Under the pieces are notes generated by a model. It saw nothing but the letters and a program-made list of their open reading frames with translations, was not told the origin of the DNA and searched no databases. A stretch of 64,000 nt of DNA, taken from assembly GCA_000004695.1 (NCBI GenBank), contig CM000152.2, positions 2,784,001 to 2,848,000 on the forward strand, given 5' to 3'. The position numbers and the translations under genes are program-made. Positions 18,732-20,726 of this stretch are shown here, in pieces. This stretch comes from Dictyostelium discoideum. Taxonomy: Eukaryota. The first letter of the stretch is position 1, and each line of letters opens with the position of its first letter.

Positions 18732-20726
18732 TCAAATAATTTTATTATACCTTATTTGATAATTTTCTATTATATCTCTTAATTCATATAACTTTAAAAT
18801 TAATTTTTCACGAATTTCTTTTGGATAATCTATTGTATCATCTAAATATGGATTGCAACCATTAATTAAAAAATCTAATTCATTATATTTATTTAAAGGT
18901 AAAGGTTTAAAATTTCCATTACCTTTATTAATTACCACTGGTTCCTTTTGATATGCAATTAAAAGAAATTCAACCATATCATACATTAATTTAAAAACTG
19001 ATTCAATTTTAAATTTATTCTAAAATTAATGATTATAATTTATAAAAATTATTAGAAATAATTTTATTTATTTTTAATTATTTTTTATTTATTTTTACTT
19101 ACTTGATTATGATTATTTTCAAATTTTTGAGTAACTTTTTCAACAGCTAAAATTAAATGATATGCTTTTAATAAATAAATAAAAGAATGATCATTTATTT
19201 TTTCAATTATATCATTTTTAAATAATTTAATAAATAAAATTGAAGCGGTTTGTTCTTGAGTTAAATTGAAACTATTATCATTATTTAAAAAGATATCATA
19301 ATCTGATTCAATCCAATTTCTAATTCCATTTTTTTCATGAGTTAAACTAACTATTTTACCATCATTTGAAATTAATTTTGGAAATAGGTCAACTAAAATT
19401 TCAACACCTTCAATATTCATTTTATATTCAATACTTCTTGTAATAATTTTATTAGTAACTCTAAATTTTTTCATATAATTATTCCTATTTGTTATCATAA
19501 TATTTAAATTTTTTAAAAATGCTTGAAATTGTGACGGATCAGTTTTCTCTGGTGTTAAAATCTCTCTTGGTATAATTAAATCAACATCAAGATCAATGGT
19601 TTCTTTTAAGCCGGTTTTACTACCAAATGAACCTCTAGGTATTAAAATACAACTTTTTAAAAATAAACCAATCGATGCTTCTAAAACGTGTAAACAATGT
19701 TTATAAAATCCATAATCTGCTTGAATTAACCTAAAAAACATGTATAAAAGTCTATCATTTTTACAATATGTTTCTAATTGATTAAAACTTGGTTTTAAAA
19801 CTTCTTTAATTTCATTATTTTTCAATATTGGAAATAAATTTTTATCTTCTTTTAAACTCAATAAATAAAAACATAAATTATCACATAAATAAATTGAAAT
19901 TTGTAATTTTAATTCAAAATTTTGAATTAATGAATTACTATTAAATTTATCAAATTCTTTACTATTTAATGGTATCCAATAATTTGGAAATGAAATACTA
20001 CAAATTACCCATTTACCATTTTTAATTTTTCCTATGAATGGTTCATAACCTCTTATTGGAATATCATTTTTTAAAAATATATAAATATTTTCAATTTTAT
20101 CTTGATAATTTAAATTAAATTGAATTGTACGATCTTTAAAATCAAAATCAAAATTTTCACTTTTTAAACACTTTTTTAAAAAAAAGGAAATATTAGTTAT
20201 ATTTATTTATTTTTTTTTTTTTTATATTTTATTTTATTTTATTTTATTTTAAAATTCTAATAATTACATTTTTAAAATCATTTTCAATAATTTTATTTTT
20301 AAAAAAATAATGAATATATAAATTTTTTAAAAATAAATCAATTTCTTCAGTTTGATCTGACGATGATGATAATGTAAATGATAAATTTGGAGAACTTGAT
20401 AAATTTGGAGATGATGATAATGAAGATGAAAATGGAGAATTTCTATAATGTGAAAAAGATGATTGGTGAAAATTTGGTGATAATAAATTATTAATTTTAT
20501 TTAATGGTTCAAAATTTTGTGAAAATAAATTTGGGGTTGTTTCACTTATTAAAAAATTTAATGTTGGTTTTGGTATTGGTATGGGTATTGATGATATTGA
20601 CGACATTGGTGATATCGGTGATTGTGTTTGAGGTAATGAAATTGATTGTTTATTTATAAAAACTTCAAATTTTTTTTTTCCTTCATCATTAAATGTATTA
20701 AAAAAATTATTATTCTTATATTCCAT
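18732..20726 (-). CDS. Pol-beta-superfamily nucleotidyltransferase-fold protein of about 604 aa. The family is unresolved: it could be a Cid1/GLD-2/TRF4-like terminal nucleotidyltransferase or a Mab-21/cGAS/OAS-like NTase. Three exons: complement(20268..20726), complement(19103..20170) and complement(18732..19019).
   Basis: Exon 1 has a true ATG at 20724-20726 (MEYKNNNFF...). A GTAATT donor and a T-rich...AAAAAAG acceptor define the 97-nt intron 20171..20267, in phase 0. The 356-codon exon 2 has no in-frame ATG before its NTase core, so it requires the upstream exon. A GTAAGT donor lies directly after ...FENNHNQ, and a TTTTAG acceptor defines the 83-nt intron 19020..19102, also phase 0. The core motif is IPRGSFGSKTGLKETIDLDVDLIIP (plus about 19575-19645), which is the [GS]-x2-GL-x4-D-h-D signature, with a candidate third acidic residue in EILVDLFP. 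Confidence 0.7.

Follow-up and report, generated by a model that had tools for sequence, protein, structure and literature searches.

The stretch of DNA analysed here (64,000 nucleotides of Dictyostelium discoideum contig CM000152.2, positions 2,784,001 to 2,848,000, hereafter the window) contains on its minus strand, at positions 18732–20726, a locus that by its sequence is a functional three-exon gene encoding a protein of 604 amino acids. The list of open reading frames (ORFs) represents this gene as three minus-strand fragments, 20244..20726 (160 aa, starting at ATG), 19085..19861 (258 aa, TTG) and 18732..18986 (84 aa, ATG). A preliminary description of the locus had proposed that the three are joined through two phase-0 GT..AG introns, and this gene model is borne out by orthologue introns, synteny and selection. 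Two of the ORFs had been said to start at TTG; this is so for just one (19085..19861), and the third opens at an internal ATG, since the intron acceptor creates an in-frame TAG. Joining the exons (Table 1) gives 1815 nt, which corresponds to 604 codons and a stop, with each exon length divisible by three. Both introns contain 6% GC, compared with 19–21% for the exons. At the predicted spliced junctions, GATTTTAAAAAT is followed by TGTTTAAAAAGT and AATCATAATCAA by AATAAATTTAAA.

D. dimigraforme and D. firmibasis each have an annotated orthologue, of 600 aa (78% identity) and 584 aa (75%), respectively, and both are colinear with the 604-aa protein across the two junctions. When the orthologous proteins were mapped to their genomic loci, the introns fell at the same codon positions with GT..AG borders and differing lengths (intron 1, 205 and 91 nt in the two orthologues; intron 2, 73 and 68 nt); the exon 1 end, GATTTTAAAAAT followed by GT, is also found in both species. 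DNA identity to the orthologues is 81–85% in exons 2 and 3 (84–85% in exon 2) and 40–73% in the introns. Raw blastn matches of the orthologous loci to the window were mostly of low complexity, and only a 6.1-kb colinear block at 79% identity was informative. The gene order is kept as well, with a bud32-like kinase, the 604-aa gene, a redoxin and then a DUF4419 gene, the last of these in D. dimigraforme. The ratio of non-synonymous to synonymous substitution rates (dN/dS, Nei-Gojobori, against D. dimigraforme and D. firmibasis) is 0.18–0.27 for the whole protein, 0.12–0.18 for residues 262–604 and 0.04–0.07 for the catalytic core (residues 320–440), and rises to 0.32–0.60 in the S/P/N-rich segment (residues ~28–124). 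Judged by these ratios, the gene is under purifying selection in the two other Dictyostelium species. The conservation of intron positions, synteny and purifying selection in these species supports the three-exon model.

The exact 604-aa sequence is absent from the searched protein collection and cluster table, which could be taken to mean that the locus is not one gene, the three ORFs being separate or non-coding and the GS...DxD match in them fortuitous. This view is effectively refuted by the purifying selection and by the intron positions, splice sites, synteny and reading frame conserved in two species. It is also contradicted by the ~50 homologues that span the sequence encoded jointly by exons 2 and 3, and by AlphaFold2 (AF2), which folds the product of the two exons into one compact domain (see below). 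Logan contigs carrying the 258-aa ORF (L003–L005, 1.4–1.5 kb) still include intron 2 and extend at their left ends into the A-rich intron 1. They have the appearance of genomic DNA interrupted at homopolymer runs and are thus uninformative on splicing.

The preliminary description had called the gene unannotatable from its ORFs, which is true of prokaryote-style ORF scanning but not of standard eukaryotic pipelines, which annotated the orthologues. The AX4 annotation probably already has a 'hypothetical protein' at this locus, since the accessions XP_641438 to XP_641449 would, by their numbering, cover 12 genes of this stretch; the entry is probably XP_641442 / Q54W08. Three single-exon proteins of the window are identical to AX4 entries in the protein collection (DDB_G0280019, DDB_G0279971 and DDB_G0279987), which identifies the window as nuclear DNA of D. 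discoideum AX4. In the same collection no protein exceeds 78% identity to the 604-aa product, D. discoideum and D. citrinum strains included, and those strains do appear in the clusters of its neighbours. The explanation is either a different gene model in those assemblies or a cluster that the collection does not show.

Table 1. Features of the 604-aa gene and its 3′ flank (positions in the window).
Feature	Position	Strand	Description
Exon 1	20268..20726	-	Codons 1–153; true ATG in AAAATGG context; ends ...DFKN, then GTAATT donor
S/P/N-rich low-complexity segment	20355..20645	-	Residues ~28–124; least conserved part of the protein; indels in orthologue alignment
Intron 1	20171..20267	-	97 nt, phase 0, GTAATT...AAAAAAG, in-frame stop
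Exon 2	19103..20170	-	Codons 154–509; lineage-specific middle region (to ~residue 274) and most of the nucleotidyltransferase domain
Conserved nucleotidyltransferase domain, coding span	18735..19807	-	Residues ~275–604, intron 2 inside
R332-G333-S334, 'GS' loop at the end of strand β1	19628..19636	-	G and S in 49/49 members, R in 45/49
D346-L-D348-V-D350 on strand β2	19580..19594	-	All three Asp invariant in 50–51/51 members
V413-D414-L-F416-P417-K418	19376..19393	-	D in 44/47 members, F in 46/48, K in 46/47
K468-x-F470(W)-K471 ... K488-x-Y490-H491, helices of the C-terminal lobe	19157..19228	-	K468 in 39/40 members, K488 in 35/36, H491 in 33/37
Intron 2	19020..19102	-	83 nt, phase 0, GTAAGT...TTTTAG, in-frame stop
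Exon 3	18732..19019	-	Codons 510–604 and TGA stop (18732–18734); final helices of the C-terminal lobe, with the N565-P-Y...D570 motif
74-nt homopolymer (A on + strand, T on gene strand)	18645..18718		Begins 14 nt beyond the stop codon; AT-rich intergenic tract of a kind typical of Dictyostelium

The family was found by an exhaustive HMMER search of 1.84 billion cluster representatives with a profile built from the three Dictyostelium species, which returned 50 proteins with E<=1e-3, of which 27 reached E<=1e-10. Word-index homologue searches gave just the two Dictyostelium orthologues, one fungal protein and fragments. The named members of the family are D. purpureum DICPUDRAFT_92046 (P0024), the chytrids Geranomyces variabilis and Rhizophlyctis rosea and the basidiomycete Jaapia argillacea; the remaining ones are environmental or run-assembly proteins. 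As judged by these profile matches, the family of the 604-aa protein is eukaryotic, small and patchily distributed, and no Pfam model captures it. The D. purpureum model, named 'Polymerase nucleotidyl transferase domain-containing' in UniRef and annotated at just 216 aa, ends inside the nucleotidyltransferase domain and is probably truncated. The 604-aa gene itself illustrates how prokaryote-style ORF scanning fragments AT-rich, intron-containing protist genes.

All matches outside Dictyostelium lie within profile positions ~255–560, and none of them reaches the N-terminal 250. The onset of the nucleotidyltransferase domain lies close to residue 275, which leaves an N-terminal extension of ~260–270 residues, shorter than the ~340 suggested at first. 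For residues 1–261 no relatives were detectable beyond close Dictyostelium species, and the Dictyostelium middle region (residues 120–272) showed no similarity to the N-termini of other members. The extension, which consists of the S/P-rich tract and a segment exclusive to close Dictyostelium species, is presumably regulatory.

Other members carry extensions of their own, and Pfam recognised no fused domain in the long members P0030, P0034, P0056, P0063, P0070 and P0077. In P0063 (Jaapia argillacea, 831 aa; locus L007 6001–8724), CBASS cyclase models (see below) match twice, at residues 85–141 and 483–537, which suggests a tandemly duplicated nucleotidyltransferase domain as in OAS2 and OAS3. 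The environmental protein P0070 (933 aa) has a long C-terminal extension ending in ...LVDCGGAGHCFFLVLSFLLHGD..., which resembles the motif of OTU-type cysteine proteases and is unconfirmed by Pfam. Five further environmental proteins (P0033, P0036, P0060, P0062 and P0069) possess extensions of ~100 residues just upstream of the nucleotidyltransferase domain, whose strand-helix pattern looks by eye like a ubiquitin-like β-grasp and is supported neither by Pfam nor by structure prediction.

At a family identity of ~25%, a defined set of residues is kept. The N-terminal part of the domain retains R332-G333-S334, D346-x-D348-x-D350-x3-P354-R355, T397-R398-S399 and V-D414-L-F-P-K418, and the C-terminal part retains G424, R437-x-W439, K468-x-W-K471, K488-x-Y-H491 and N-P-F-x2-D570, the final Asp being present in 29/29 members. 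The catalytic core identified in the preliminary description, IPRGSFGSKTGLKETIDLDVDLIIP (residues 330–354), and the third carboxylate proposed within EILVDLFP (residues 410–417) are both present, with D414 located 66 residues after D348 rather than ~55. By analogy with other Pol-beta nucleotidyltransferases, the R332-G333-S334 loop would be the triphosphate-binding element. D346 and D348, which the HMMER alignments place opposite the D-x-D of OAS2, CdnC and Cid1, are the likely metal-binding carboxylates, followed by D350 as a third invariant Asp; D414 in the middle of a β-strand is the probable third catalytic carboxylate. The h-D-h-h-P context of D414 (VDLFP) resembles the 'FDVLP' of OAS and the pattern of bacterial CD-NTases (cGAS/DncV-like nucleotidyltransferases). 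In the HMMER alignments, the K468...H491 helices match the helices that bind nucleotide in OAS and Cid1, 'KHW...(S/Q)Y' (OAS2 'ILLIKHWHQ', Cid1 'VLLVKHWAKRKQ..LSSYG').

The catalytic kit thus listed (the G333-S334 loop, D346, D348, D414 and the basic or aromatic K468, K471, K488, Y490 and H491) appears conserved and complete. A catalytically dead scaffold of the MiD49/51, NF45/NF90 (DZF) or MAB21L1 kind, which would bind a nucleotide or nucleic acid without transfer, is very improbable. Neither the carboxylates nor the GS loop have been lost: G-S, D346 and D348 are invariant and D414 is kept in 44/47 across ~50 divergent members, and the dN/dS of the catalytic core is the low value given above. 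To our knowledge, the known pseudo-enzymes of the Pol-beta fold have lost catalytic residues. That the gene and an active nucleotidyltransferase fold are both real is, in our judgement, very probable.

The fold of the domain was examined by structure prediction. AF2 modelled residues 262–604 from the 52-sequence alignment with high confidence (predicted local distance difference test score, pLDDT, 89.8; predicted template-modelling score, pTM, 0.89); the full-length protein with three sequences gave no usable model (pLDDT 31). In the model, N-terminal helices precede strand β1, with G-S at its end; the following strand bears the D-x-D-x-D motif, D414 is positioned mid-way along a long strand, and a helical lobe carrying K468, K471, K488, Y490 and H491 follows. 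R-G-S corresponds to model residues 71–73, at the junction of strand E67–71 and helix H72–76; D414 is model residue 153 within strand E148–159; and exon 3 encodes a long terminal helix at 315–342 (model numbering). Residues ~275–604 are thus predicted to form a two-lobed Pol-beta-type nucleotidyltransferase with an α/β catalytic core and a helical 'PAP/OAS1-type' lobe. The hallmarks of the superfamily, namely the GS loop, the carboxylate pair on β2, the third carboxylate and an α/β core recognised by structure comparison, are all found, and the nucleotidyltransferase fold proposed in the preliminary description is upheld, its nearest relatives being CD-NTase, OAS and cGLR (cGAS-like receptor) structures.

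In the structure ranking, scores of 14.7–16.0 over ~240–254 aligned residues were obtained for CdnD02, CdnC, CdnG, DwCdnB, P. aeruginosa CdnD, OAS1, CdnB, beetle cGLR, DncV and oyster cGLR. NF45 (14.1), cGAS (14.0), GLD-2 (13.6), the terminal uridylyltransferases (TUTases) and Trf4 (12.4–13.5), canonical poly(A) polymerase (PAP; 12.6), a CCA-adding enzyme (11.1) and Pol beta (9.7) ranked below. The top Foldseek matches were CdnE, CdnC, cGAS and DwCdnB, with a query-based template-modelling score (TMq) of 0.55–0.60 for CdnC, DwCdnB and cGAS, compared with 0.40–0.45 for GLD-2, Cid1 and TUT7. On the predicted model, the family is structurally closest to CD-NTase, OAS and cGLR enzymes, with the two lobes characteristic of that group. 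The best viral match to the model, an uncharacterised 389-aa protein of Hyperionvirus sp. (BFVD A0A3G5A6S9; E=1.8e-6), has a TMq of 0.56, on a par with the best cellular CD-NTases; the family in amoebae and chytrids may be linked to giant viruses.

Profile models point in a similar direction for some members of the family. PADLOC models of the cyclases of CBASS (cyclic oligonucleotide-based antiphage signalling system) match at least 10 of the 52 members, the best being P0059 with E=1.3e-7 over 169 residues covering the core and the start of the helical lobe. NCBIfam CBASS_cyclase_a matches eight members (best 1.6e-5, below the curated cut-off). P0059, the most CD-NTase-like member, had no bacterial or archaeal relatives in 185,579 genomes and no PDB sequence match. 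When the 52-sequence profile was compared with the PDB, OAS2 (3.5e-4) and CdnC (3.5e-3) were ranked above Cid1 (~0.6). The structure ranking together with the CBASS-cyclase matches tilts the assignment to the cGAS/OAS/CD-NTase side.

We therefore favour, with a probability of about one half, the reading that the 604-aa enzyme is a nucleotide-signal synthase that uses a second nucleotide as acceptor. In this mechanism, a nucleoside triphosphate would be bound with two Mg2+ by the GS loop and the Asp triad, and held by the lysines and the Tyr/His pair of the helical lobe. Two-metal nucleotidyl transfer via S334, D346, D348 and D414 would then pass the nucleoside monophosphate to a ribose hydroxyl. 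With CD-NTases, OAS and cGLRs as the nearest structural neighbours and members that match CBASS cyclase models, the acceptor would most likely be a second nucleotide, and the product therefore an oligonucleotide second messenger, linear or cyclic. A role as regulatory or ligand-sensing module might fall to the 260–270 N-terminal residues specific to Dictyostelium.

Several results weigh against a signal synthase. The D. discoideum protein itself gave nothing significant against Pfam, PADLOC or PDB sequences: it matched none of the five Pfam models proposed at the outset (NTP_transf_2, PAP_assoc, Mab-21, OAS1_C and SMODS) and no CBASS cyclase model of PADLOC or NCBIfam. Among all 52 family sequences nothing exceeded a Pfam threshold, Mab-21 and OAS1_C matched no member, and other members gave weak matches to SMODS (one, at 0.041) and NTP_transf_2 (3/52, best 0.0022, below cut-off). 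The sub-threshold Pfam matches lean instead to MTPAP-like_central (five members; 0.014 and 15.9 bits for the D. discoideum domain, against a cut-off of 27), TUTase (three members, best 0.0015) and NTP_transf_2. A cleaner 17-sequence profile placed EfCdnE (0.004), Cid1 (0.0042) and OAS2 (0.0051) at indistinguishable E-values in the PDB. The NCBIfam archaeal CCA-adding model, with seven members matched and a best E of 1.2e-5, scored as well as CBASS_cyclase_a. The analysis identified no partner acting as receptor or effector; the genes flanking the locus (bud32-like kinase, redoxin, DUF4419 and mitochondrial carrier) are uninformative in a eukaryote, and no genome-wide search was made. At the sequence level the evidence is thus mixed, with the CD-NTase/OAS, non-canonical PAP (ncPAP) and CCA groups not cleanly separated, and the caution of the preliminary description in leaving Cid1/GLD-2 and cGAS/OAS/Mab-21 side by side was justified by the nearly equal E-values of EfCdnE, Cid1 and OAS2.

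The same matches can be read in favour of RNA 3′-end tailing, in which the enzyme would be a non-canonical poly(A) or poly(U) polymerase of the Cid1/GLD-2/TRF4/TUTase kind that adds nucleotides to an RNA primer. This is the main rival, and we regard it as unlikely. In its support, the alignment of Cid1 with the 17-sequence profile includes the second block, KxWK...SY, and the weak Pfam matches are largely to tailing enzymes and NTP_transf_2. The tailing enzymes have, however, the lower TMq values in Foldseek, and the strongest sequence match to any named family is that to a CBASS cyclase model (1.3e-7). PAP_assoc was matched by no family member among the Pfam matches listed, and the ncPAP signature of NTP_transf_2 plus PAP_assoc above thresholds is not found. 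The archaeal CCA model raises another possibility, that of a different acceptor, as in a CCA-adding-like tRNA enzyme or the nucleotidylation of a protein or small molecule. This is improbable: such enzymes rank lowest structurally, and the family aligns over ~250 residues with CD-NTases and OAS, whereas minimal antibiotic nucleotidyltransferases align over the core alone. Neither the head-neck-body-tail arrangement of class I CCA-adding enzymes, with its tRNA-binding tail, nor a TIGR03671 score above cut-off was found. As far as we know, a tRNA-binding tail domain is lacking from the 604-aa protein, and a canonical CCA-adding enzyme should already exist in Dictyostelium.

Taken together, the family consists of template-independent Pol-beta nucleotidyltransferases with a PAP/OAS1-type second lobe whose membership in any named family is not demonstrable; it is new and unnamed within a known superfamily. 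Beyond the signal-synthase reading of the single enzyme, a bolder reading, which we consider less likely than not, would make the 604-aa protein the founding member of a eukaryotic clade of cGAS/OAS/CD-NTase-like signal synthases that had so far gone unrecognised and that extends over dictyostelids, chytrids, a basidiomycete and numerous uncultured eukaryotes. Such a clade would be invisible to Pfam Mab-21, OAS1_C and SMODS and would therefore have been missed by pan-eukaryotic surveys.

Dictyostelium serves as a genetic model of cell-autonomous defence, and the most extensive survey published so far (PMC10732462) records it as having no homologue of cGAS, OAS or the CD-NTases. A conserved, catalytically intact enzyme of CD-NTase/OAS-like fold would provide a tractable system, open to gene knock-out, protein purification and identification of the product, in which to ask if immunity based on nucleotide second messengers reaches into Amoebozoa and early fungi, and to search for a receptor. 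If the clade is real, social amoebae would have a nucleotide second-messenger pathway, probably in immunity or stress, with its own N-terminal sensor module. An RNA-tailing enzyme would still represent a new family outside current domain libraries; a signalling nucleotide as product would be of considerably more interest. The literature on CD-NTases with Dictyostelium and on the IDs of neighbouring genes yielded no paper on the 604-aa gene.

The window is AT-rich throughout its 2-kb segments (14–32% GC). Divergent to the 604-aa gene lies a two-ORF gene on the plus strand (21237–21413 and 21703–22119, span 21237–22119) with the kinase motif HGDLTTSNMLL. This gene is the Kdo/RIO1/Pkinase-matching, bud32-like neighbour of the orthologous loci and is likewise split by an intron in the ORF view.

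Compared with known systems, the ncPAPs (Cid1, GLD-2, Trf4, TUT4/7 and the trypanosome TUTases) share the superfamily architecture and catalytic motifs with the family but rank lower structurally, and their PAP_assoc and RNA-binding accessory domains are not detected in it. Similarity to cGAS and the animal cGLRs (Mab-21 family) amounts to 10–13% identity, with Pfam Mab-21 unmatched. OAS2 is the best PDB match to the 52-sequence profile; its alignment to the family covers GS...D-x-D and pairs 'PRVLSF' with 'TRSI' and 'IKHW' with 'KLWK', although OAS1_C matches no family member. We know of no RNase L-like receptor in Dictyostelium.

Eukaryotic OAS-like and eSMODS CD-NTases, in clades defined by Pfam OAS1_C or SMODS matches, are patchily distributed in protists, with eSMODS occurring in Amoebozoa and choanoflagellates (Culbertson & Levin 2023, PMC10732462). 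The 604-aa family is likewise patchy in its distribution and fails both models; if it is a CD-NTase relative, it forms a separate and more divergent clade than these. D. discoideum (EP00023) and D. purpureum (EP00024) are negative for cGLR, OAS and eSMODS in S1 File of the same survey, which is consistent with a family invisible to standard models.

The bacterial CBASS CD-NTases (CdnC, CdnD, CdnB, CdnE, CdnG and DncV) have the GS loop, the D-x-D and the third Asp in common with the family, at 9–14% sequence identity. Several family members match the CBASS cyclase models, whereas the D. discoideum protein itself matches neither these nor Pfam SMODS. In contrast to the bacterial enzymes, the 604-aa gene is eukaryotic and intron-bearing, stands without an operon partner or effector, and encodes an N-terminal extension of 260–270 residues that is restricted to close Dictyostelium species. 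The family is further distinguished by an additional invariant Asp (D350) and by T-R-S and N-P-F..D motifs of its own.

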